Below are positions 7,798 through 24,950 of a DNA stretch of 64,000 nt, piece after piece. Location of the stretch: contig CAWKDC010000001.1 in assembly GCA_963848305.1 (NCBI GenBank), positions 32,001 through 96,000 of the forward strand. The letters are read 5' to 3'. The notes beneath the pieces were generated by a model. The model was not told where the DNA came from, searched no databases, and saw nothing but the letters and a program-made list of their open reading frames with translations. A program made the position numbers and the translations under genes. The DNA is from an uncultured Gammaproteobacteria bacterium (GTDB lineage Bacteria; Pseudomonadota; Gammaproteobacteria; JABCZS01). Positions within the stretch are counted from its first letter, which is position 1; every line of letters begins with the position of its first letter.

Positions 7798-8003
7798 CAA
7801 CACAGTTCACTTAGCTGTCATCAGGGATTAAACAAATCTAATTACGTGCGAAGCACCTTGGAGTGCGAGTGGCAGCAGCCACCGCCTTCCGCCCGAGATT
7901 CATACGGGACTCGCACGAATGAAAGGCGGTGGCTGCTGCCACTCGCACTCCAAGGTGCTTCGCACGAGCCCATGTCAAAATGCGCGCTAAGTGAACAGTG
8001 TTG
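7798..8003. mobile_element. 206-bp MITE copy 1 (18-bp TIRs, 10-bp target duplication, internal 44-bp-arm hairpin)
   Basis: TIRs caacacagttcacttagc / gctaagtgaacagtgttg (17/18 match); TSD cctctacgtc at 7788-7797 and 8004-8013; second copy at 29500-29705. Confidence 0.9.
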
Positions 8004-8117
8004 CCTCTACGTCAGAAGTTAAGCGTAGCTTCACTTCGATTGAGTTTTTGGGCGCTTCAGAGTAAGTTATGGCTGCCTTGGCGAATTGCAGCAGGGGGTC
8101 AGAACAGGGAGGCAGCA

Positions 8118-10283
8118 TGATCCAGCATCCTATTTGCGCAACCAGCACCGCGGACAATTGCATACGTCAAGTCTTGGGGAATTGGCGATGTGAACGCGCC
8201 TGCCTGAGCTTCTTTTCTCGCCTCGCACTAGTGGTCTTCCTGGGGGCCGCCATGATGCCATTTCCGGGCGGAGCGTTCGCGCAGGAAGGAGCTCCGGTGG
8301 CGCGGTGGTCATTCGACAATGCTACCGGCCCGGCGGTGCGCGACACGGCGAGCGGAACGGAGGACAAGGTTGGAGGTTTCTACCAATACGTTGCGGGGGT
8401 TTCTGGAAATGGCTTGCGGTTTGATGGATACACCACCAGTGTCGTCCGCAAGGCGGAAAATGCCCCCAGATTGCACGGTTCATTTTCGGTGGAAGCCTGG
8501 ATCGCCCTTGATACGTACCCATGGAACTGGATTCCCGTGGTTGACCAGGAGAAGGATCAGCAGGCAGGTTACTTTTTCGGCGTGGACGCGCTTGGGCACG
8601 TTGGTCTGCAGGTGGATATTGACGGGATTTGGTATTCCGTGACCTCGACCGACGCAAATTCCGCTGAAGAAGTGGGCTCAGATTACGGGGACCTTCGAGG
8701 AGAACCGTGGACTGACCCTATACCTTGACGGAAGAGAAGTGGGACGTCTAGCTGCGCGCGGTGCGATGCTGCCCGCCGATATGCAGGACTTGGTGATCGG
8801 CAGGGTGCGCGAACCGTTGCCTCCCTTCCCTTCTTTCGCCATTAACCCGTGGCATCCGGTCTGGTACTCGCTCGATGGCATTTTGGATGAGGTGGCGATT
8901 TATGACCGGAGTTTGAGCGGAGAAGAGGTTCAGAGGACCTACGCCTCTGCTCACGCCCCCGCCGGAGAAGTTATCCCGTGGCCGGTGCTTCCCTCCGGCC
9001 CTCCCGGAGCGGGTCCTTTCGGCGCCTACTATTACACCCTCAAGTACGAGGACACCTGGGACCGTCTGCGGCGCATCGGGCCTGATTCCGACGTGGTGGT
9101 CCGCTTCGACGACTCCCCGATTCGCCTGGTCTTCTGGCAGGGGACCGGCTACATCCCCACCTGGGTCACCGAGAACGGCACGTGGTATACGGACGAATTC
9201 CTTGAAGGGTACGCTTCCGAATGCCCGGACCACGGGGATTGCGAGCCCATGTCCGACAAGCAGGACAGGTATTCGCACGTCAACATTGTGGAGAGCAGCG
9301 ACGCGCGCGTGGTGGTTCACTGGCGTTATGCGCTGGCGGAGGTGGAACATTACCTGGGCGCCGAGCCCGATCCCTTGACGGGATGGTTTGATTGGGCCGA
9401 CGAATATTGGACGGTTTACCCGGACGGGGTGGCCATTCGCAAGCAGGTCTTGCATCCCACCGACCAGACCAAGGGGTTCGAATGGCAGGAAACCATTGTC
9501 ATCAACCCGCCCGGCCGCCGCCCGGACGATGATATCAATCTGGACGCCCTTACCATTGGCAATATGAAAGGAGAGACGGCCACTTACACCTGGCTGCCAA
9601 AGGCTTCAGGAGTGTACGGGGATCTGCACCAGCCTAAATCCATTGATAAACCTGAGAATCCAAATATCCAGTTGGTGAATCTGAAATCAGCCTGGAAGCC
9701 TTTTGAAATCGTTTCTCCCACCCATGCCAGATTCAAAGTCTTCAATGTTTCACAGTCCTATTTCTCGTTTGGTTGCTGGAACCATTGGCCGATCACGCAA
9801 ATTGCTTCCAGCGCCAGATATCTGCGTGGCGCCCGACCGGGCGTCGCACACCTCGCTTTCCCACATCTATTGGGACACCTATGCAACCACCGAAAGTTCG
9901 ATCACCAAGCTTCTGATGGATGGCTTGACCACGAAATCGGCCGCGGAACTGCTCCCGCTGGCGAAATCGTGGTTGTCGCCACCCCCGGTTGAACGTCGAA
10001 GGCGAGGTCTTTCAAAGCGAGGGCTACGACCCGGCGCAGCGGGCCTTTGTGGTGGTCCGGAAGAATGGCGGGAAAGCCGGCGGCATTGGCGTTGACTTTG
10101 CAGGCCAGCGATTCCTCACCGGTTTTGAATCCGGCCATCGTGATCAAGAACTGGGGAGATGGCGGCGGCGCAACTGAAGATCAACGGGAAACCGGTAAAC
10201 TGGGGGAAGGATTTCCGCCGCGGGTACGTTCAGGAATCTCGACGGCACTGACTTGGTCGTGTGGATCCGGCGGGAGTCAGTAA
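8118..10283 (+). CDS. secreted LamG-like jellyroll (concanavalin A-like) domain protein; several frameshifts
   Basis: Signal-like segment ending AFAQE; VARWSFD, GNGLRFDGY, FSVEAWI, LDGILDEVAIYDRSLS; ORFs 8069-8728, 8739-9992, 9703-10095, 9989-10177 and 10047-10283 read as pieces of one protein. Confidence 0.7.
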
Positions 10284-16370: not shown

Positions 16371-17927
16371 ATGGGGATGAAAGGTATGAGCAAAGGACAG
16401 AAAGTGGCGATCTTTGACACAACGCTGAGGGATGGCGAGCAAGCGGCTGGGTCGAGGCTCAGCAGCCCCGATAAGCTCACGCTGGCGCGGCAGTTAGCCC
16501 GACTGAAAGTCGACGTCATCGAGGCCGGATATCCCGCTTCTTCGCCCGAAGACTTCGAGGCCGTCAAGCGGATCGCGCAGGAGATTGACGGCCCGGTGAT
16601 CTGCGGTTTGTCGCGTGCCGTGCCCGAGGACATTGAGGCCTGCGGCAAGGCGCTGGCGAGGGCCAAAAGGCCCCGCATCCATACCGGCATCGGCGTTTCG
16701 GATATTCACATCATGGGGAAATTCCGCGACGAGAAATACGGCAAGACGCTCGGTGAGAAGAAGGTCAAAATGATGCAGATGGCAGTGGAGGCGGTCAAGC
16801 GGGCTCGCAGCCACGCCGATGACGTGGAGTTCTACGCCGAAGACTCCGGCCGCGCCGAGCCGGCGTACCTCTACGAAATCCTCGAGGCCGCCATTGATGC
16901 CGGCGCCACCGTCGTCAACATTCCCGATACCACCGGCTACGCGGTGCCGGAGCAGTACGGAGCACTGATTCGGGGCATTGCCGAGAACGTCCGCAACATC
17001 CAAAGCGCCACCATCAGCGTCCACTGCCATGACGACCTGGGCATGGCGGTTGCCAACTCGCTCGCGGGCATCCGCAACGGCGCCCGCCAGGTGGAGGGTA
17101 CCATCAATGGAGTCGGAGAACGGGCGGGCAACGCCGCGCTGGAAGAGATCGTCATGGCCCTCCGCACGCGAGCCGACTTCTTTGGGGTGTCTACCGGCAT
17201 CGACACCCGCGAACTGTATCGCACTAGCCGCCTGGTATCCGATCTGCTCGGCACGGTGGTTCCGCCCAATAAAGCCGTGGTGGGCGGAAATGCGTTCTCG
17301 CACAGCTCGGGAATCCACGTGGATGGATTTCTGAAAGACCGGGAGACTTACGAGATCATGCGCCCGGAGGACGTCGGCCTGGCGCAGAGCCACGTGGTTT
17401 TGACGGCGCGCACCGGACGCGCCGGGTTGCGCGCGCGCCTGGAAAAGCTGGGGCACAAGCTTTCCAAAGAGGATCTGGACGTCATCTATCAGCGCTTTCT
17501 GGCCGTGGCGGACAAGAAACTCGAGGTTTTCGACGAGGACCTGGTTGCCATCGTGCGCGACGAATTACACCCGGTGCCCGAAGTCTGGCAGCTCGAATAC
17601 TTGCACGTTTCCAGCGGTACTTCGGCCATCCCCACCGCCACCCTGCGCTTGCGCGTCCATGGGGACGTGCGGGAGGGGGCCGCGATCGGAAACGGTCCCG
17701 TAGACGCCGTCTATAAAGCGATCACGGCACTGGCGGGAGACTCTGTCCGACTGGTGCGCTACGACATTCACGCCGTGACGGGCGGCACGGGAGCCATGGG
17801 CGAAGTAACCGTGCAGCTCGAAAAAGGGGAGCGGCGGGTCGTGGGGCGGGGCGCATCCACTGACGTGATTGAAGCGAGTGCCAAAGCGTACCTGGACGGG
17901 CTCAATCGATTGGCGAGCCTCGGCTAG
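16371..17927 (+). CDS. leuA: 2-isopropylmalate synthase
   Basis: IFDTTLRDGEQ, NIPDTTGY, HCHDDLGMAVANSL, GVGERAGN, PPNKAVVGGNAFSHSSGIH, C-terminal regulatory domain GNGPVDA; start may be 16386. Confidence 0.95.
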   Translation: MGMKGMSKGQKVAIFDTTLRDGEQAAGSRLSSPDKLTLARQLARLKVDVIEAGYPASSPEDFEAVKRIAQEIDGPVICGLSRAVPEDIEACGKALARAKRPRIHTGIGVSDIHIMGKFRDEKYGKTLGEKKVKMMQMAVEAVKRARSHADDVEFYAEDSGRAEPAYLYEILEAAIDAGATVVNIPDTTGYAVPEQYGALIRGIAENVRNIQSATISVHCHDDLGMAVANSLAGIRNGARQVEGTINGVGERAGNAALEEIVMALRTRADFFGVSTGIDTRELYRTSRLVSDLLGTVVPPNKAVVGGNAFSHSSGIHVDGFLKDRETYEIMRPEDVGLAQSHVVLTARTGRAGLRARLEKLGHKLSKEDLDVIYQRFLAVADKKLEVFDEDLVAIVRDELHPVPEVWQLEYLHVSSGTSAIPTATLRLRVHGDVREGAAIGNGPVDAVYKAITALAGDSVRLVRYDIHAVTGGTGAMGEVTVQLEKGERRVVGRGASTDVIEASAKAYLDGLNRLASLG

Positions 17928-18145
17928 AAGGCCGGACGTCGGGGTTTCCATGGCGCCGTCCTCGGGTCAAGCGAAATCATACGAAAGGGGAAACTTCCGG
18001 AAACGAAGGCTACCCGACAGTTATCGGTGAACGCTGGGCGACTACCGAGGAGTTATTTCCCCGAACCCCGTATCCGCGGAGTTTGCATACTTGCTGGTAG
18101 TAAGGGCGTTTTCCCACGCGGAATCCGCATTTAGGGTAGGTGCTG

Positions 18146-18487
18146 CTATCCGGCGAGCCTGCGGAAGGTAGGGTGTTCGCTCCCCGCTGTGGTCGCCGCT
18201 GGAGTCTTGCGGTAGACGAAAACGATTTTGCCGGACTCGGGGACGGCGTCACGGTCGGGCTGAACGCCGCGGTCGTTCACCAGGTGGGCGAACACGGCTT
18301 GGGCGGCGTCGGTGGTGTAGGCTTCGCGATAGGTTAACTCATCGCCCAGATCGGCCTCCCGGTGCCGCTGGAAGAACGGCCCGCGCGCATCTTTGGCCGT
18401 CCCTACGCACCATTCCTCGCACGCACCCCCGTGTTTCCGAATGTGCCCTTCCATGTCTTCAATAATTTCCTGACGGTTGATAGGCAT
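18146..18487 (-). CDS. small hypothetical protein, possibly a degenerate GIY-YIG-like fold
   Basis: 113 aa with RBS-like gagaaagg upstream; WCVGTAKD...FFQRH and VFVYRK. Confidence 0.6.
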   Translation of the reverse strand: MPINRQEIIEDMEGHIRKHGGACEEWCVGTAKDARGPFFQRHREADLGDELTYREAYTTDAAQAVFAHLVNDRGVQPDRDAVPESGKIVFVYRKTPAATTAGSEHPTFRRLAG

Positions 18488-18652
18488 AATCGTAGCCTTT
18501 CTCTTCAGTTTTAAATCTTGAATCTGCCCCTCGCCCCTTGTCAGTCGTTACTCGCCACTAGTTCTTGGGCGTTTCACATTTGCAAACATGTGAACGCTCG
18601 TCGTATTGGGAGCCGCGGAGTAGTTCTGAGATAGGCGCAACGCGCTACCCGC

Positions 18653-18881
18653 CTTCTCCGAAAAAAAATTCCGGCAGAAATTGGACTACATGCACAAGAA
18701 CCCGGTGACGCGCGGCCTGGTGATCTCTCCCGGTGATTGGCCGTGGTCAAGCTGGAGGTTCTACTATTCACAGGATGCATCGATTCTCCGCATGGACCGG
18801 ATGCGTTGAGTCCAACTTTCGAGAAGTCCCTTCGGGAGATCGCAGACTTCAAAGAGCCGGAGTCTGCCAGCCCCCGTGTCT
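18653..18881 (+). pseudogene. 3' remnant of a RAYT transposase with its right-end REP (direct repeat of 21722-21951)
   Basis: Near-identical by eye to 21722-21951; encodes KLDYMHKNPVTRGLVISPGDWPWSSWRFY then agaagtcccttcgggagatcgcagac. Confidence 0.9.
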
Positions 18882-19029
18882 TGCAGCATTTCGACATTGA
18901 AGGTTACTAAGCAAGATTATGTTATGATCCCAGGAACCATCGGCTTGGCACGCAGACACACATCAAGAGCAATGCGCCAGCCGGCCGGAAGCCCTGGAGC
19001 TGCATATTAGTGCCACAGGGCGGGAGAGG

Positions 19030-19563
19030 TCATTTCGTGATCGTCACGTCACTAACGGACTTGAGGATCAGTCGAGTCTGATACAACGTACTGGGCGTGA
19101 ACCCATAGCCTTTCCTGACGACGGTCTTGCCAGTCTTATCCGTCACTGTCAATTTGTCTGGACCGTCGAACCGTCCGACGAGCGTCGCGAATACTCGGCC
19201 TTCTGGAGGCTTAGAGGACGGGCCGATCTGCAGTCCCCACCCGTACTTCGAAAGCGCTTCGTCCAACTTCTTGAGATTCTCATCTTTCAATAGACTGAAT
19301 TCAGGGCGGTCCGAGTCTCGCACGAGGTCCGGGGAATAGAGCGCGACGGCCGCCCCTTTGTGGTCGCACTCCGCCAGGAGGACAGAAATCTCGAATGCCG
19401 CGTAGACTTGCGTGCGAATGCGAACCATTTTCCCGCTAAAGGCCGCCGGGTTCCGAACGAGCTCGCACACCGTGGTGTCAATGGGGTTCATAGCCGCCCT
19501 GTCGGGCAACGCACAAATTCCGAGCGCCACGATCGCCAATAGAATCGTTCTCAATGTGGACAT
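19030..19563 (-). CDS. putative immunity protein (secreted) of the upstream Rhs toxin
   Basis: Starts 17 bp after the Rhs stop with RBS gggaga; signal peptide; TTVCELVRNPAAFSGKMVRIR motif. Confidence 0.65.
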   Translation of the reverse strand: MSTLRTILLAIVALGICALPDRAAMNPIDTTVCELVRNPAAFSGKMVRIRTQVYAAFEISVLLAECDHKGAAVALYSPDLVRDSDRPEFSLLKDENLKKLDEALSKYGWGLQIGPSSKPPEGRVFATLVGRFDGPDKLTVTDKTGKTVVRKGYGFTPSTLYQTRLILKSVSDVTITK

Positions 19564-19580
19564 GTGATCTCCCTTCCCGC

Positions 19581-21227
19581 CTACTGCTGCTCCCAGGGGT
19601 CATGATAGGGCAATGGGTCAACAAAGATCTTGCCGGGATTCAGACGAGGGTACGTACCCATGATCAGATTCGATGTGCCAGCATCGTTGAAACCTCGGCC
19701 ACTCGTAAAGATAGTGTAGCCGCCAGCCGAAAGACCGGACAGGCCAAGCCCTTGTGCCACCCAAGCGGACGTTTCATACCCGCGATACTCGAACGAGAAG
19801 TCCGGCAGCGGGGCCGTCGAACTCCTTGGATCGAGATTGTCCATCACGTGGGTTCCCTCGTGGCCAGCATTTATCGCCATGATGGTTTCGTTTGGATTCT
19901 TGCTCATGTCGAACGTAACTGCTGAGCCGACCGTTGCAGCAGCACCTAGCCCGCGCAGGTCGCCGGTCGTGACGGTCACTCCGTTATCATCGCCTGCCTT
20001 GCCATAGGTCTTCAGAACTGCATCGAGCCTCGCACGCTCCTCGCTGCCCTTTCCGAAGCTGTTTCTCGCCGCTTTTATGTCGTCCAACGAATCCTTAAAC
20101 TCTTTCTTGAAAGCCTTGAAATCAGCGTTACACTGTTTGTCAGATTTCTCGCAAGGGTTCTTGAAATCGTAGAGCCCGGTGGGATCGACGCGAGTGGTGG
20201 GATTATTCCGGACATAAGCATACATATTCCAGGTCTGGGGGTCGCTGGGGTCGGCAGCGGCCAGGCCTGCCGGGTCGGGGGTGAGCCAGCGGCCGGCCAG
20301 GTCGTCATAGACCCGGTGCGGGGCCAATTTAAAATCGCCATCCCCCTCCTGAAACGCCGCCCACTCCCACTCCCATAAATTACCGGCCGTTTGCCACAAC
20401 TGACCCCAGGGGTACCACAGTAAGTCCTCGGTCCAGTTCCCCAGATGGTTGGTGTCCTGGGTTGCGGAACCGAGAAAGTTGGGGTGCTGAAGATAGGTCT
20501 CGTTGTTGTCACGGGAATATGCTGCGATTTTCCGCCCCCCCGCTCGTACCTGGTCCACCCACAAGCTGCTGCCGTCGGCGTTCCCCAGCCAATCACCATT
20601 GGGAGCGAACAATGCGGACATGTTGGTCCACGGCACGGCATAGTAGACCTCTTGGCCGAAGGCATTATAAACTGCGCTGGAATTGGTTTCCCGCCCCTCG
20701 CCATCCCAGGAGAAGCTATTCGTGCCGTCACTGGTCAGATTCCCCGCGGCGTCGTAGCTGAAGCCGTCAATGCGATTCGGGTAATTGTTGTAAGTCAATA
20801 CCGGGCAAGGGCCGTTCGTAGACCCGTTCATCAAGCAGGTCATGTTGCCGTAGGCGTCATAGCCAAAGGCGAGGTTATACGTGCTGTTGCCGCTCGCCTG
20901 CGCGCAAGCCAGGCGATTCACGCCGTCATAGACATACAAGGCCGAGTGGCTCATCGTGCTGTTCACCGCGTCCGTGAAAGTATAACCAATCACGTCGCCG
21001 TTGTTGCCGCTCCCGGACGCGGACACGGGGCAGCCGGGCGGCGTACTGCCGCCGGGCAAAGAGTAATTATACCCCAGTGTATAGTACGCTCCGGGGTTGC
21101 CGCTGGTGCCCAACTGAATCTGGGTCGGCTGCATCCGGTTATTGTAGGAGTAGGTTTCCTGGCTGTTCGTGCACCCGGAACCCGCGCAGCCGTTGGTGAG
21201 ACCGCTTAGCGCCCCCCAGGGAGTGTA
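19581..21227 (-). CDS. 5'-truncated (orphan) RHS repeat-associated core protein with C-terminal HExxH metallopeptidase-like toxin domain
   Basis: YD repeats (YDGVNRL, YDAYGNM, YDAAGNL, WDGEGRE); GRWLTPDPAG...WNMYAYVRNNP...DPTGL core end; HEGTH in the C-terminus; sequence above 21227 is RAYT/REP. Confidence 0.85.
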   Translation of the reverse strand, partial: YTPWGALSGLTNGCAGSGCTNSQETYSYNNRMQPTQIQLGTSGNPGAYYTLGYNYSLPGGSTPPGCPVSASGSGNNGDVIGYTFTDAVNSTMSHSALYVYDGVNRLACAQASGNSTYNLAFGYDAYGNMTCLMNGSTNGPCPVLTYNNYPNRIDGFSYDAAGNLTSDGTNSFSWDGEGRETNSSAVYNAFGQEVYYAVPWTNMSALFAPNGDWLGNADGSSLWVDQVRAGGRKIAAYSRDNNETYLQHPNFLGSATQDTNHLGNWTEDLLWYPWGQLWQTAGNLWEWEWAAFQEGDGDFKLAPHRVYDDLAGRWLTPDPAGLAAADPSDPQTWNMYAYVRNNPTTRVDPTGLYDFKNPCEKSDKQCNADFKAFKKEFKDSLDDIKAARNSFGKGSEERARLDAVLKTYGKAGDDNGVTVTTGDLRGLGAAATVGSAVTFDMSKNPNETIMAINAGHEGTHVMDNLDPRSSTAPLPDFSFEYRGYETSAWVAQGLGLSGLSAGGYTIFTSGRGFNDAGTSNLIMGTYPRLNPGKIFVDPLPYHDPWEQQ

Positions 21228-21231
21228 GGCC

Positions 21232-21943
21232 GGCTGGCGCTCAGACACCCGTTCTTTGGTGTCTGCGATTCCCGAAGGGACGTTCTCTTCCGGCCCCGCA
21301 CCGTCGAGAGTATACTCTTCTGCGCCATGCCCTTCTACCACCGCGTTTACAGTCCCGGTGAACTGCAATTCATCACCACCAGCACCTATCGCCGCACGCC
21401 CCTTTTCCTCTCGGATCGCTTTCGGCGCTGCTTTGTCCAGAGGCTGGAGGAGGTGCGGCAGGAATTACATTTCCTGCTCGTCGGCTGGGTTCTGATGCCC
21501 GAGCATTTTCATATGCTGATCAAGCCCGAGCCCGCCGAAACCACTCCCCTGATTATGAAGGGGCTCAAGGAGGAATCGGCCAAGCGCATCATCAGAACAC
21601 TTCGGGAAAACCTTCGGTATCCTTGGTGCCGGAAGACGCTCGCCAGGCTGCGGCTGCCCTCCACGGTTCACGATGAATCACACTACCGCCTCTGGCAGCG
21701 CCGCTTTTACCCCTTCAATGTCTTCTCCGAAAAAAAATTCCAGCAGAAATTGGACTACATGCACAACAACCCGGTGACGCGCGGGCTGGTGAGTTCCCCC
21801 GGCGACTGGCCGTGGTCAAGCTGGAGGTTCTACTATTTGCAGGATGCGTCAATTCTCCGCATGGATCGGATGCGCTGAGCTCAACTTACCAGAAGTCCCT
21901 TCGGGAGATCGCAGACTCCAAAGAGCCGAAGTCTGCGCCAGCC
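21232..21943 (+). mobile_element. RAYT element: transposase gene flanked by ~50-bp inverted hairpin (REP) ends
   Basis: Left ggctggcgctcagacacccgttctttggtgtctgcgattcccgaagggac (21232-21281) is an imperfect inverse of right gtcccttcgggagatcgcagactccaaagagccgaagtctgcgccagcc (21895-21943). Confidence 0.8.
21327..21878 (+). CDS. REP-associated tyrosine transposase (RAYT, Y1 HUH family)
   Basis: FITTSTYRRTPLF, HUH motif VLMPEHFHML, LWQRRFY, catalytic DYMHNNPV, WPWSS. Confidence 0.92.
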   Translation: MPFYHRVYSPGELQFITTSTYRRTPLFLSDRFRRCFVQRLEEVRQELHFLLVGWVLMPEHFHMLIKPEPAETTPLIMKGLKEESAKRIIRTLRENLRYPWCRKTLARLRLPSTVHDESHYRLWQRRFYPFNVFSEKKFQQKLDYMHNNPVTRGLVSSPGDWPWSSWRFYYLQDASILRMDRMR

Positions 21944-22217
21944 CCGTGTCTGGAAATGGTTGAGTGATCTTTACAATCGTGCCTGAGAGAGCCGGCGCGG
22001 CGATCTCCGCGGCAATCTTCCCGGCTGCCAGCCTACCCATCAAGTCCTGACCGAGGCTCACGAACAACGAAAATGGAATAAGGAATTTGACCGAGGCGCT
22101 AAGCCAAAGCCAGTAGCGGACTTGGGCGCGATTCTTGCGGAAGGCGAGCGTCAGCAGCCCCACCACAACCGCAAACACCGTTGATTGCCACAAATGGTTC
22201 GTCACCTCAGCGATCAT
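21944..22217 (-). pseudogene. N-terminal fragment of a BlaR1/MecR1 (M56 peptidase) sensor, truncated by the RAYT element
   Basis: NHLWQSTVFA...KNRAQVRYWLWLSASVKFLIPFS; runs into the RAYT right end after ~90 aa; no HExxH domain left. Confidence 0.85.
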
Positions 22218-22614
22218 TTCGATTCATGCTTCCTTTCTGCTTGTGTTCGAGATCAAGCTTCTTGATGGTCTTCTCCAACTCTCGAACGTCATCAAGGGTG
22301 AGCTTCCCCGCTTCGGCCAACTGCGCCATCATGGGTTGAGCCTGCCCTCCGAAGAAACTCAGAATGTCGTCAAGGAGCCGGCGGCGTGCCACGTCCCGGG
22401 GCACCGTCGGTTCGAAAATATGAGCGTTGCCGATCTTCCGGACTCGGCGCACTGCCTTCTTGCCCTCCAGCCGGTACACCGTGGTCTGGATGGTGGTGTA
22501 TGCCGGCCGAGGCTCCGGAAACGACTCCTGGATCTCCCGAATGGCTGCCTTTCCATGGGTCCATAGGACTTCGAGGATTTGGAGTTCGAGCTTGGTCAAT
22601 TTTGGTCGGGCCAT
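22207..22614 (-). CDS. BlaI/MecI/CopY family transcriptional repressor
   Basis: LTKLELQILEVLW, PAYTTIQTTVYRLEGK, NAHIFEP; overlaps the M56 gene start. Confidence 0.92.
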   Translation of the reverse strand: MARPKLTKLELQILEVLWTHGKAAIREIQESFPEPRPAYTTIQTTVYRLEGKKAVRRVRKIGNAHIFEPTVPRDVARRRLLDDILSFFGGQAQPMMAQLAEAGKLTLDDVRELEKTIKKLDLEHKQKGSMNRNDR

Positions 22615-22638
22615 GTGCCTTCTACTATTCTCCATCTA

Positions 22639-22666
22639 AAATTACTACAATATAGTAGTATGTCAA
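22639..22666 (-). promoter_or_regulatory. sigma70 promoter with BlaI-type operator
   Basis: Minus-strand TTGACA (22666-22661) -16 bp- TAATTT; palindrome TACTAC-N6-GTAGTA at 22643-22660. Confidence 0.75.
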
Positions 22667-22961
22667 GAAAAATATTTTGCGACCTTGGAGGGCGATTGGT
22701 CGCCCGCTCGAAGCTGATCGACACTCCCGCTGATTACTCCTGCGTGGTCGCCCAGCGTCTACCGATCCATGGAAATCTGGGCGGATCACGGCCACTCGGA
22801 AGCTATTCCGGTCAAGTCCCCTTCGAGGAGGTTTGTCCTGGCAGAGCACTCGCCGGATTAATCGCGAGTAACGGCGTACGGTAGAGCGGTCGCCCAGTTC
22901 CCGCCTCGCGCAGTCTGCACCTATTATCGGCAATACGCCGCCAGCCGGCTGTAGCGTCATC

Positions 22962-23477: not shown

Positions 23478-24950
23478 GTGCGGCAACCAGAAAAGGCGAC
23501 GGTGGGAGTATTCGGGATTGGGCTGGCGGCATACTGGCCACAGTTCCACGGGCTCAAGGAGCGGCTGGAAGGCTACCAGCGCAAGGTGGAACAGCGCATC
23601 GGCCAATGGGCCACGGTCGTCAGCGCCGGCCTGGTGGACGACACTCCCAAAGGTCTCCAAGCCGGTGAAGCCTTTCGTCGCGCGAGCGTCGATCTGGTTT
23701 TCTGCTACGTCGGCACCTACGCAACTTCCTCCACCGTATTGCCCGTCATCCAACACGCCAAGGCGCCCGTGGTGGTTCTGAACCTGCAACCACGCGCCGC
23801 GCTCGATTATGCGCACACCGATACGGGCGAGTGGCTGGCCAACTGCTCCGCCTGCTGCGTTCCGGAAATCTCCGGAGCGTTTGCCCGCGCGGCCATTCCC
23901 TTCCGGCAAGTCACCGGCATGCTCGACCCGGAACCCGATGTGCGCGAACCGAGCGAATCCGCGTGGAGCGGAAATCGAGGAATGGTGCGCCGCCGCCAGG
24001 GTGGTTCACAATCAGCGCCGGGCTCGCATCGGATTCCTCGGGCACCCCTACCCCGGAATGCTCGATATGTACAGCGACTTCACCCAGCACCAGGCGCAAC
24101 TGGGGACGCACATCGAAGTTGCTGGAAATGTGCGACCTGGAGGCGCGCGTGAGCGCCGCCACGGATGCCGAGATCGCGCGCAAGGCGGAGGAGACGCGCA
24201 GCATCTTTGACATCAGTGAGGACAGCCCGTCCGACCCGCTGGCGAAAAAGCCCGCCCCGGAGCAGATGGATTGGGCCTGCCGCGTTGCCGTGGGGCTCGA
24301 TCACCTGGTGGAGGATTTTGACCTCGACGGCCTGGCCTACTACTACCGCGGCGTGGGCGGCAACATGTATGAGCGGATCTGGGCGCGGCGTGATCCTGGG
24401 ATGCTCGCTGCTGACCGCGCGCGGAATTCCCTGCTCCGGTGAAGCCGATCTGAAAAATTGCCAGGCGATGAAGATCATGGACCTGCTGGGCGCGGGAGGC
24501 AGCTACACGGAGCTTTACGCCATGGACTTCCGCGAGCGCTTCATCCTGATGGGCCACGACGGCCCCTTCCATCTGGCCATCGCCGAAGGCCGGCCGATCC
24601 TGCGCGGGCTCGGCCTCTACCATGGCAAATCGGGATTCGGCGTCAGCGTGGAAGCCAGCGTGCGCAAAGGCCCCATCACCATCCTCGGCCTCACCCAAAC
24701 CTGCGATGGCCGGCTGAAATTTCTCGCGGCCGAAGGCGAATGCCTCGCCGGCGAGCGGCTGAAGATCGGCAACACCAACAGCCGCCTGCGATTCGCGCTT
24801 GAACCCGCGCCGTTCATCAATGCCTATTGCAGCGAGGGGCCTACCCACCATTGCGCGCTGGGCGTCGGCCACGTCCTGGGCAAGCTTAAGAAGGTGTCAT
24901 GGCTCACGGGGCTGGAACTGAAAGTCATCGGGCCGACGAGCGGGCAATAA
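23478..24950 (+). CDS. L-fucose/L-arabinose isomerase family protein; frameshifted
   Basis: GIGLAAYWPQF, YPGMLDMYSD, GIPCSGEADLK, MGHDGP, KIGNTN, GPTHHCALGVGH. Confidence 0.85.

Follow-up and report, generated by a model that had tools for sequence, protein, structure and literature searches.

Genes and repeats at the locus

We analysed a 64,000-nt stretch of DNA (the window) of a soil Acidobacterium in which a 5'-truncated Rhs gene lies on the reverse strand. Its YD-repeat and core region (20184-21227; TIGR03696, 46 bits against a cut-off of 32.5) is followed, after a DPTGL motif, by a C-terminal toxin domain containing HEGTH (19581-20183), and directly downstream of this domain, on the same strand, by a candidate immunity gene (19030-19563, 177 aa, hydrophobic N-terminus) named for its position. 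Compared with a 1672-aa Rhs protein of a relative (G001:C17), the fragment matched residues 1088-1453 at 51% identity. Because this likeness starts at AYTPWGAL, residue 1088, at window position 21230, the gene is cut in its YD-repeat region at the tip of a REP, as a first-pass annotation of the sequence had stated, and some 1,090 N-terminal residues are absent. The open reading frame continues through the REP to a TTG at 21368, this extension having no likeness to Rhs. No full-length Rhs gene stands upstream of the fragment, where the REP tip is followed by a REP-RAYT-REP unit and then by a truncated blaR1. A Pfam search of the toxin domain returned no family, and an Atlas search led to a Peptidase_M91 cluster at 0.89, which we take as a lead only; the immunity gene matched no Pfam or NCBIfam family. 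The left neighbour of the locus is a 113-aa open reading frame (18146-18487, reverse strand) without Pfam or NCBIfam family, for which the Atlas search gave only unnamed clusters, at 0.97; homologous DNA occurs beside RAYTs in L004 and L031, partly in L003, and about 2 kb from Rhs fragments in G002:C456.

The intact RAYT gene of the unit was where the first-pass annotation had placed it, on the forward strand at 21327-21878 (183 aa; NCBIfam NF047646, 120.2 bits against a cut-off of 80; Pfam Y1_Tnp, E-value 3.3e-9), and its product shares 97% amino acid identity with that of L001. We built a REP profile from 164 REP copies and ran it on the window and on the whole assembly, yielding exactly three matches, all within the window (18822-18867, 21229-21286 and 21892-21944). 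REP C (21228-21286, reverse strand, E-value 6e-10; hairpin of 8 bp, z -2.59) forms the left end of the unit with its tip at 21228, and REP B (21892-21944, forward strand, E-value 8e-14; hairpin z -2.78) the right end with its tip at 21943/21944. The remaining match belongs to REP A (18822-18872, forward strand, E-value 2e-10), which has a 2-nt deletion in its tip and a hairpin of 8-9 bp (z -1.16) and is the right-end REP of a RAYT 3' stump (18651-18808, forward strand; residues 132-183, without the HUH motif; tblastn, 90% identity). By blastn, 18653-18867 is a direct copy of 21722-21936; the direct RAYT 3' copy with a REP previously described at 18653-18881 is therefore there, at 215 bp and 90.7% identity instead of about 230 bp. 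A RAYT fragment of G001:C40 is cut at the same residue as the stump, with a REP tip directly before it. A further, decayed copy, REP D (18945-18986, forward strand), was read from the sequence itself and consists of the 13-nt tip (18974-18986) and the distal arm only; the profile missed it and it has no hairpin fold (z -0.12).

The 13-bp repeat GGCCGGCTGGCGC at 21228-21240 has an exact inverted copy, GCGCCAGCCGGCC, at 18974-18986. The first-pass annotation had reported this repeat around the cassette and regarded both copies as outer tips of REPs; the repeat is present, with its left copy at 18974-18986 instead of 18972-18984, and the right copy is indeed the tip of REP C, whereas the left one belongs to the decayed, unfolded REP D. 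Since the tip GCGCCAGCC followed by a semi-conserved 4-mer closes nearly every copy of this REP family, the inverted repeat is neither chance nor a separate signal, and is best read as the shared REP tip of two facing units.

On the far side of the unit, the tip of REP B cuts a blaR1 5' fragment (21945-22217, reverse strand, about residues 1-98, found by tblastn), next to an intact blaI-type repressor gene (22207-22635, reverse strand; Pfam Penicillinase_R, E-value 1.8e-24). With the BlaR1 homologue of G002:C408 as tblastn query, residues 1-98 matched window positions 21945-22250, and the second half of blaR1 was not found anywhere in the assembly. The G002:C408 blaI-blaR1 pair (75% and 57% amino acid identity; no Rhs within 10 kb), the sole blaI-blaR1 homologue fetched, is probably a paralogue, and no relative was found in which an intact blaR1 adjoins a full-length Rhs gene.

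The REP-RAYT-REP unit in relatives

The 716-bp unit carries the RAYT gene between two inverted copies of one REP hairpin, with the conserved tips as its outer ends, and recurs in Terriglobia MAGs with the tips again outermost; homology to the units of other genomes runs from 21227-21232 to 21943-21944, with unrelated flanks. In four relatives we obtained 31, 59, 55 and 77 matches, seven of them full-length (one each in G001 and G003, two in G002 and three in G004). Many matches consist of a left-end and a right-end piece paired across a deleted middle, dozens being internally deleted or solo ends, and the internal-deletion joints of such derivatives also occur in soil metagenome contigs. Copies within one genome are only 84-89% alike, so the element is old. 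An analysis of 93 REP copies gave pairing in 96.9% of cells and compensatory changes in 102; none of 500 shuffles reached either figure, and slid controls pair in 24-60%; the REP is a selected structure.

The 7-Mb relative G001 holds 104 REP tips, against 19 for a control pattern. Among 100 of these 104, neighbouring tips within 6 kb face outward in 12 pairs, of which 11 span 31-707 bp and the twelfth, whose tips are imperfect, 4.9 kb; inward-facing pairs number 6 and same-orientation pairs 9, as expected for clustered units, and no outward-facing pair of this set was seen to enclose cargo. Unit tips thus point outward but those around the cassette point inward, which places the cassette outside both units, as flanking DNA between them.

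REP/RAYT units at Rhs loci

Rhs fragments were found in 9 of 80 RAYT loci, where about 0.6 would be expected (P 7e-9, or 2e-3 if Rhs density were five times higher), and on the RAYT tree the members next to Rhs are dispersed (their 9 rows require 9 changes, of which supported branches force at least 6), giving the association at least 6 separate origins. REP tips adjoin 6 of 27 Rhs fragment 5' ends, against about 0.14 expected under random placement within 3 kb; the loci in these comparisons were partly picked for carrying a RAYT. Besides the window, REP tips stand at the 5'-truncated end of Rhs/toxin fragments in L002, L030, L043 (twice) and G001:C40. The cut points differ at every junction (in the reference Rhs, residues ~956, 1099, 1232 and 1367; in one case the cut falls within the toxin domain), so the junctions arose separately. 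Units lie exactly between cassettes in L030, L002 and L043, and a RAYT or REP converges on an immunity-toxin-Rhs series in the window, G001:C40, L032, L034, L043, L069 and L124. In G001:C40, two inward-facing tips enclose a 622-bp Rhs core segment that duplicates part of the neighbouring Rhs at 95.7% identity. The other 21 of the 27 orphan fragments have no REP at their 5' end, including those of the classical main-plus-two-orphans array of G001:C17, and the 11% of RAYT loci near Rhs stand beside a remainder with very mixed neighbours.

We recovered the immunity gene at seven other loci. It accompanies the same toxin domain, with 63-80% amino acid identity, in L030/L146, L137, L143 and L145; in L144 and L147 it stands solo, the toxin being reduced to a short 3' remnant. 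HEGTH is conserved in L030 and L137. REPs are present only in L030 and L146, which share one arrangement in which the REP cuts inside the toxin. In L137, L143, L144, L145 and L147, homology extends from the toxin start at 20165 (the exact point in L137) or later to 0-20 nt past the immunity stop, without a REP at the module edges, so the toxin-immunity module moves without REPs. Overall the module occurs in five or six other, REP-free contexts, the shared part starting at the toxin domain boundary, and a second copy of the whole cassette was not found among the seven loci.

Origin of the arrangement

The arrangement most probably arose when REP/RAYT units inserted in an Rhs orphan array and in blaR1, after which units recombined with one another and the intervening DNA was lost. 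One unit would have entered the Rhs gene at about residue 1088 and another, in the same orientation, blaR1, at that time located upstream of Rhs on its strand. By homologous recombination the two units would then have removed everything in between, leaving a single unit flanked by the 3' part of Rhs and the 5' part of blaR1; downstream of the immunity gene, REP A with its RAYT stump, and likewise the decayed REP D, would be leftovers of further units. We infer this history of two insertions and one deletion. The unit's two tips interrupt different genes, Rhs at residue 1088 and blaR1 after residue ~98, and, because neither gene's missing half lies across the unit, a rearrangement must have come after insertion. 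Nor does simple insertion explain the tip abutment at 6 of 27 fragments, since in no case is the remainder of the gene found across the REP; this calls for either repeated, separate deletions or a process linked to REPs. Orphan toxin modules of CDI and Rhs loci disrupted by IS elements offer a precedent (PMC3150448). On the best reading, the cassette is DNA between units and not cargo within one.

The first-pass annotation, whose observation is confirmed overall and whose interpretation is partly supported, had instead proposed that the Rhs-CT/immunity cassette is cargo, mobilised by RAYT cleavage at two inverted REPs in the manner of a composite single-strand transposon. An intact RAYT does adjoin the cassette, exact 13-nt tips stand on both sides of it, the expected further copies abutting different Rhs modules at the same REP base were found (L002, L030, L043 and G001:C40), G001:C40 has its 622-bp copied segment between inward tips, and in vitro the TnpA(REP) of E. 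coli transfers strands and can cut to the left or right of its hairpin, also at a distance (PMC3479197), so that polarity alone cannot exclude action on flanking DNA. This origin is nevertheless very improbable: the tips face inward at the cassette and outward in the conserved unit, REP D has lost the hairpin that the E. coli enzyme needs for binding (PMC3479197), one of the two RAYT copies is a stump of 52 residues with 90.7% identity to the other, every junction has a different cut point, the REP-free contexts and the lack of a second cassette copy speak against it, as do the short outward pairs of G001 without cargo, and the junction pattern of the window is absent from 185,579 species genomes. 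The units might also take part in the turnover of Rhs arrays without carrying cargo, either as portable homology or as fragile hairpins prone to breakage, where cassettes are cut, lost or swapped from one array to another, or by travelling linked to incoming cassettes; a single crossover in the Rhs core would then integrate such a cassette, with the unit ending up between its immunity gene and the 5'-truncated core that it displaced. The excess of Rhs among RAYT loci, its dispersal over the RAYT tree, the six tip-bound 5' ends, the units placed exactly between cassettes and the seven convergent loci are in keeping with such a role, which we consider unlikely given the 21 REP-free fragments, the low share of RAYT loci near Rhs and the partial selection of loci for RAYT presence; the enrichment may only mirror the insertion tolerance of dispensable arrays.

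It is improbable, too, that the 21227/21228 junction is an artefact in which the repeated unit joined loci that are adjacent in no cell. Public short-read contigs from other studies bridged the junction between the decayed REP and the immunity gene (18986/18987) without mismatch (X1, 18830-19261; X6, 18830-19183) and, with 11 mismatches, that between the right REP and blaR1 (21944/21945; one X1 contig, 21774-22900). No public contig bridged 21227/21228, which is seen in this assembly alone; depth in the 21049-21219 bin was 0, 0.15, 0.73 and 0 in four metagenome runs, and the unit was 10-40 times deeper than its flanks in the same metagenomes. Near base 140,150 the G+C content of contig C1 drops from 58% to 46%; the contig looks chimeric outside the locus, pointing to one or more false joins in the assembly, and split open reading frames suggest that the assembly is error-prone; no other genome has the junction pattern. 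Against an artefact, REP tips abut truncated Rhs in four other assemblies from other projects, and long reads, if the assembly was built from them, easily span a 716-bp repeat.

Like the RAYT/REP-REPIN systems (E. coli TnpA(REP) with BIMEs, Pseudomonas fluorescens RAYTs with REPINs), the locus encodes a Y1 HUH enzyme of NF047646 between two inverted copies of a hairpin repeat that is over-represented in relatives and shows compensatory changes. Its REPs have conserved flanks, ATCG 5' and CGCCAGCC 3' of the hairpin, and not GTAG (PMC3479197). RAYTs are described as typically single-copy and housekeeping-like (PMC5581495), whereas the relatives carry 1-3 full-length copies of this subfamily, with other subfamilies also present in several genomes, and both ends, along with parts of the RAYT gene, persist in many derivatives, so that the whole unit acts like an old insertion sequence with miniature derivatives. 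With IS200/IS605 elements and their miniature derivatives it shares a small Y1 transposase gene between subterminal hairpins, sharp ends and many non-autonomous deletion derivatives, but the RAYT protein scored 32.6 bits on the IS200 model, below the cut-off of 55, and copies within a genome are diverged. The two ends of the unit are inverted copies of one hairpin, whereas the two hairpins of IS608 are similar and on the same strand. H-rpt (ISAs1-family) insertions inside E. coli Rhs elements are likewise an IS-like repeat and a recurrent component of Rhs loci, but their transposase is of another family and no hairpin repeat is involved.

The locus resembles orphan Rhs/CdiA modules of Salmonella, E. 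coli and Dickeya in having a 5'-truncated core that passes through a DPxGL boundary into a variable toxin, with an immunity gene downstream, and in that its toxin-immunity pair follows different upstream sequence at other loci. Orphan modules vary in how much upstream sequence they keep, and IS elements disrupt some of them (PMC3150448); here the fragment begins at a REP tip with truncated blaR1 beyond, in place of a full-length Rhs upstream, and the interrupting element is a RAYT/REP unit. Among the literature matches listed, none linked RAYTs with Rhs, one of them treating the two separately. The link of REP/RAYT to Rhs loci is real, and on the best reading an orphan Rhs module is decaying here next to a repeated REP-RAYT-REP element, which has probably cut and rearranged the locus.

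Boundaries of the REP-RAYT-REP unit and its truncated neighbours

The intact RAYT gene (21327-21878, +) encodes a protein of 183 amino acids that scores 120.2 bits on NF047646, the curated model for REP-associated tyrosine transposases (cut-off 80), and 32.6 bits on the IS200 model (NF033573), under its cut-off of 55. It is bordered by inverted REP hairpins, REP C at the left end (21228-21286, -, with a profile match over 21229-21286; hairpin z -2.59) and REP B at the right end (21892-21944, +; hairpin z -2.78), the pairing being backed by 93 copies. Directly right of REP B lie the first ~98 codons of a blaR1-type gene (21945-22217, -) and an intact blaI (22207-22635, -; Penicillinase_R, E 1.8e-24). 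Left of REP C, the cassette comprises an Rhs-like ORF (from 19581 upward, -) ending in a toxin domain, and a 177-aa ORF, the candidate immunity gene (19030-19563, -). Further left come a decayed REP D (18945-18986, tip at 18986), REP A (18822-18872, +) after a 3' stump of a RAYT gene (18651-18808, +), and a 113-aa ORF of no known function (18146-18487, -). We confirmed what the first-pass annotation had observed of the locus as a whole, including the exact 13-bp inverted repeat around the cassette, whose right copy lies at 21228-21240 and whose left copy lies at 18974-18986, two bases to the right of where it had been placed.

The Rhs ORF was recognized by the RHS-associated core domain model (TIGR03696, 46 bits with a cut-off of 32.5), with the DPTGL motif located at the end of the core. 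It scored 17.6 bits on the Pfam RHS_repeat model (cut-off 22), yet over ~350 residues it was 51% identical to the repeats of an Rhs protein of 1672 aa, encoded on a contig of a relative's genome (G001:C17). This similarity begins at AYTPWGAL, residue 1088 of 1672, corresponding to window position 21230, and the 47 codons upstream cross the REP into the RAYT gene on the opposite strand with no real identity to Rhs. The Rhs gene is therefore cut in its YD-repeat region at the REP tip, as had been proposed; the fragment aligns from residue 1088 of the reference onward, and a full-length Rhs with the N-terminal delivery part is absent. Similarly, the blaR1 fragment matches residues 1-98 of its homologue and reaches 21945, the first base past the right REP tip. 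Neither the missing N-terminal part of Rhs nor the missing half of blaR1 was found elsewhere in the assembly. The high-GC part of contig C1 that holds the window also carries a second, short Rhs core fragment (C1:12226-12600) and a second, complete blaI-blaR1 pair (C1:112342-113934), both outside the window.

Several smaller features were recorded around these boundaries. The 113-aa ORF and the toxin domain matched no Pfam or NCBIfam family, and an Atlas search gave leads only; homologues of the 113-aa ORF lie 0.6-1.3 kb from RAYTs in two related loci (L004 and L031, partly also L003) and ~2 kb from Rhs fragments in another relative (G002:C456), and the ORF is possibly a further orphan gene of the immunity type. 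REP A and REP B have ~8 nt in common past their tips (CCGTGTCT, 18873-18881 and 21944-21952), which are blaR1 coding sequence at REP B; the match may be due to chance or to a segmental duplication common to the stump and the intact copy. The sequence 5' of the RAYT stump (18600-18652), suspected to be a decayed REP by analogy with a contig of G001 (G001:C40), has a weak REP likeness by eye and no fold (z -0.02). The RAYT stumps of the window and of this contig are both cut at residue 132 and are 84% alike mutually and ~90% alike to the intact gene, values that fit a shared origin of the two stumps as well as separate ones. Where Rhs fragments abut a REP, the open frame continues upstream through it for 47 (window 21228-21368), 78 (L002 6190-6423) or 89 codons (L133 8933-9134); in REP-free Rhs orphans a stop mostly occurs 6-33 codons upstream, with 2 of 9 running open for 71 and 102 codons. 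Chance in GC-rich DNA is a possible cause of these long open frames.

The assembly consists of 4 contigs (1.89 Mb). The G+C content of C1 is 58% in the first ~140 kb, which include the window (C1:32001-96000), and ~46% in the other 1.75 Mb, with the switch near base 140,150, and the close relatives of the window's genes are all found in Terriglobia MAGs. Contig C1 or the bin probably combines DNA of an Acidobacterium with that of an organism of lower G+C content, and only ~140 kb of the assembly seems to belong to the window's organism. In addition, an alpha-amylase gene and one other gene are each split into two adjacent ORFs (1297-2866 and 23478-24950), which suggests frameshift errors in the assembly. 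Parts of the stretch are held by 11 public runs from 4 studies, and we compared four of these runs (one per study, as assembled short-read contigs) with the window over 17800-22900. The 18986/18987 joint is bridged with 0 mismatches by contigs of the soil metagenome runs X1 (18830-19261) and X6 (18830-19183), and the 21944/21945 joint by one X1 contig (21774-22900, 11 mismatches). No contig of the four runs extends over 21227/21228, the bin 21049-21219 being essentially without coverage, which is neutral on the join; the 27-nt sequence across 21227/21228 had no match in genome_contigs, a search that possibly excludes the record's own entry. The depth of the REP-RAYT-REP unit is 10-40x that of its flanks in these metagenomes, as expected of a repeat common to many soil Acidobacteria. 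In one contig of a third run (X7), position 21889 is followed on the same strand by 21270, a step back of 620 that connects the right end of the unit to its left end; some soil organism may carry the unit in tandem, or the joint may stem from a circle.

The unit and the toxin-immunity module in relatives

RAYT relatives occurred in 259 of 295 candidate stretches of species genomes, and we kept 80 loci, all of which come from MAGs of Acidobacteriota or Terriglobia. At one locus after another, the flanks are unrelated and the DNA matches the window from 21227-21232 up to 21943-21944. Four relatives of 7-9 Mb yielded 31, 59, 55 and 77 matches to the unit, full length in 7 cases; many of the matches consist of a left end of ~100-270 bp beside a right end of ~100-200 bp, i.e. 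internal-deletion derivatives, and the deletion joints 21495>21768, 21496>21764 and 21517>21763 are the same in relatives and in soil metagenome contigs. Alignment of ~150 ends showed one REP at both ends of the unit, inverted relative to each other, and composed in order of a small GTCCC-TTCG-GGGA(C/G) hairpin, ATCG, a CAGACnnn...nnnGTCTG hairpin and a near-invariant tip (CGCCAGCC) with a loose 4-mer, past which the ends have no further similarity. Across 93 copies, 96.9% of cells in the two hairpins are paired and 102 are compensatory; 0 of 500 shuffles came as high, and pairing in slid controls was 24-60%.

Within a single genome the full-length copies, some of them interrupted, are 84-89% alike; the unit family is old, with slow turnover. 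Full-length units of the subfamily number 3 in one relative (G004) and 2 in another (G002), and several MAGs give 3-5 RAYT loci. RAYTs are described in PMC5581495 as typically single-copy and housekeeping-like; here, in contrast, the whole REP-RAYT-REP unit is multi-copy with many deletion derivatives. The window's own assembly holds 3 REP copies, all at the locus, which says little about REP abundance because only ~140 kb seems to belong to the organism. In G001, 104 tips were found at ≤1 mismatch, versus 19 for a reversed control pattern. This genome also contains minimal symmetric elements of 31-40 bp, made of one hairpin with a REP tip on either side (C10:4135-4173, C32:60491-60530, C1:44359-44397 and C6:148565-148595), as well as outward tip doublets of 94-175 bp, which may be REPIN-like forms of the RAYT/REP family.

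Relatives of the 177-aa ORF were found at 7 other loci, L030/L138 and L146 being one identical arrangement. The relative follows the same toxin domain in L137, L143 and L145, with HEGTH kept where readable, and in L144 and L147 the immunity gene stands alone with the last ~40 nt of the toxin. The linkage kept in L030/L146, L137, L143 and L145 makes the two genes a candidate toxin-immunity pair. DNA similarity of the module starts at 20165, just past the DPTGL that ends the Rhs core, or later, and ends 0-20 nt beyond the immunity stop. Polymorphic-toxin modules are usually exchanged where the conserved core ends (PMC3150448), and the window's module behaves likewise; it needs no REP to spread. 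Among the immunity-gene loci a RAYT unit is present only in L030/L146, where the toxin domain, of 196 residues, is cut by the tip of the unit at residue ~51. In L030, a 2-mismatch pattern picked up a REP-like tip 3' of the immunity gene; it was rejected, as it lies within Rhs coding sequence and is negative with the REP profile.

Association of REP tips with Rhs breakpoints

Rhs, toxin or immunity matches were present in 9 out of 80 RAYT loci, which together span 830,579 bp; ~0.6 loci are expected from the 25 occurrences of the Rhs core domain in 36.4 Mb of five relatives (P 7e-9, rising to 2e-3 at a fivefold Rhs density). The Rhs-REP association predicted by the first-pass annotation is real in this set of loci, chosen partly for having a RAYT, though it may reflect no more than tolerated insertion into dispensable arrays. 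For a tree of 69 RAYTs we left out 11 of the 80 loci, L043 among them, because their matches were short or interrupted. The 9 rows next to Rhs require 9 changes on this tree, of which supported branches force at least 6, and these rows cluster no more than shuffled labels. An automatic count placed a REP tip within 15 nt of the 5' end in 4 of the 27 Rhs or toxin fragments whose ends lie inside a locus (~0.14 expected). This becomes 6 of 27 once the window and L002 are added, tblastn over-running into REP-encoded residues in both. The cuts fall at reference residues ~956, 1088, ~1099, 1232 and 1367, plus one inside a toxin, and since they differ, the REP/Rhs junctions arose separately. Units land in or beside Rhs cassettes far above chance, and hairpin tips coincide with exact Rhs cut points.

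The far side of the unit is never the other half of the cut gene: L030 and L043 have a preceding immunity gene there, and L002 and the window have unrelated DNA. Two inward tips on G001:C40 enclose a 622-bp piece of Rhs core, which shares 95.7% identity with part of an Rhs 1.7 kb away and adjoins the RAYT stump that is cut, like the window's, at residue 132. Beside this piece (L133, i.e. G001:C40:18000-36000, at 7849-9257) there is also a second RAYT-like gene, different from the first (111 aa, LPDHWHAIV motif), and a 135-bp flank is duplicated there too, in permuted order. No REP was found at 21 of the 27 fragment 5' ends, including the classical array of a main gene plus two orphans on G001:C17, and REP-free orphans in L124, L128 and L002 (first fragment) also begin only a few residues from 1088. 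Neighbours of RAYT units were very mixed: of the 139 flanking ORFs the first 69 were scanned, and 38 of these matched no family at E 1e-10, the others being metabolic, outer-membrane and defence genes. Some units also neighbour defence or mobile genes (L039 2542-5736, L010 7013-8449, L013 6819-9020 and L008 4710-5297), which encode a Cas9-like protein (RuvC_III + HNH), a reverse transcriptase, a restriction-modification enzyme of MmeI type and AbiU2. H-rpt elements are known from E. coli Rhs loci. A full-text literature search gave no RAYT-Rhs link among the matches listed. REPs and rhs genes are handled separately, with no circles from either, in bioRxiv 10.1101/2024.07.17.603846.

Origin of the locus

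The locus had been proposed to be a composite single-strand transposon in which a RAYT/REP system moves the cassette as cargo, and this proposal is not supported. The tips of the autonomous unit (21228 and 21944) face outward and are its outer termini, whereas those of REP D (18986) and REP C (21228) both face the cassette, which therefore lies outside both neighbouring units. According to PMC3479197, the E. coli enzyme is able to cut CT sites on either side of the hairpin and also at a distance, so polarity weakens the cargo model without sufficing alone against it. The same source reports that binding and cleavage by this enzyme require the hairpin and a conserved flanking tetranucleotide; REP D retains the 13-nt tip and the distal arm, is missed by the REP profile and has no fold (z -0.12 versus -2.59 for REP C and -2.78 for REP B). 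In a census of neighbouring tip pairs within 6 kb in G001 (100 of 104 tips), 11 of the 12 outward pairs span 31-707 bp and the other spans 4,942 bp with both tips imperfect, so that no cargo-bearing unit is evident among them; there are also 6 inward pairs (197-4,048 bp), about as common as expected of clustering units, and 9 pairs in the same orientation. None of the 7 other immunity-gene loci has the same cassette ends.

The structure most likely reflects two insertions and one deletion. One unit would have inserted into the Rhs gene and another, in the same orientation, into blaR1 upstream on the same strand, after which homologous recombination between the units would have deleted the 5' part of Rhs, the 3' part of blaR1 and all the DNA between them; downstream of the immunity gene, the RAYT stump, REP A and REP D would be what is left of further units. 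The element's boundaries, the cut at each of its tips, the decayed state of REP D and the module's spread without REPs are observed directly; the deletion and the sequence in which things happened are what we infer. An allele with intact blaR1 and no insertion, which the first-pass annotation had called for, was not found in five relatives, where a 16-kb query gave paralogue-level blaI-blaR1 matches only and no synteny across the locus; a comparison of the flanks of a G001 unit with three other genomes likewise found no empty site.

Two insertions plus a deletion do not fully explain the recurrent abutment of tips and Rhs breakpoints, which leaves some room for an active role of REP/RAYT units in the turnover of Rhs arrays. 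We consider this role unlikely, and it is equally doubtful that in soil Terriglobia they act as recurrent architects of these arrays, giving joints where cassettes are excised, deleted or gained; for example, one crossover in the Rhs core might integrate a cassette linked to a unit. The locus adds one more case to kinds of element already known, and it cautions that a short exact inverted repeat around a gene can merely be the common end of two adjacent repeat units. Had RAYT/REP really moved toxin cassettes, this would have given REPs a function and polymorphic toxins a new vehicle, which the evidence does not support. The acidobacterial RAYT family does depart from the single-copy, domesticated picture, and the non-random tie between units and Rhs orphans, with tips at the breakpoints, makes it testable whether REP hairpins or the enzyme cause rearrangements of toxin loci. 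If the units were indeed architects of Rhs arrays, a transposase family supposed to be domesticated and single-copy would have an active part in the diversification of polymorphic toxins.
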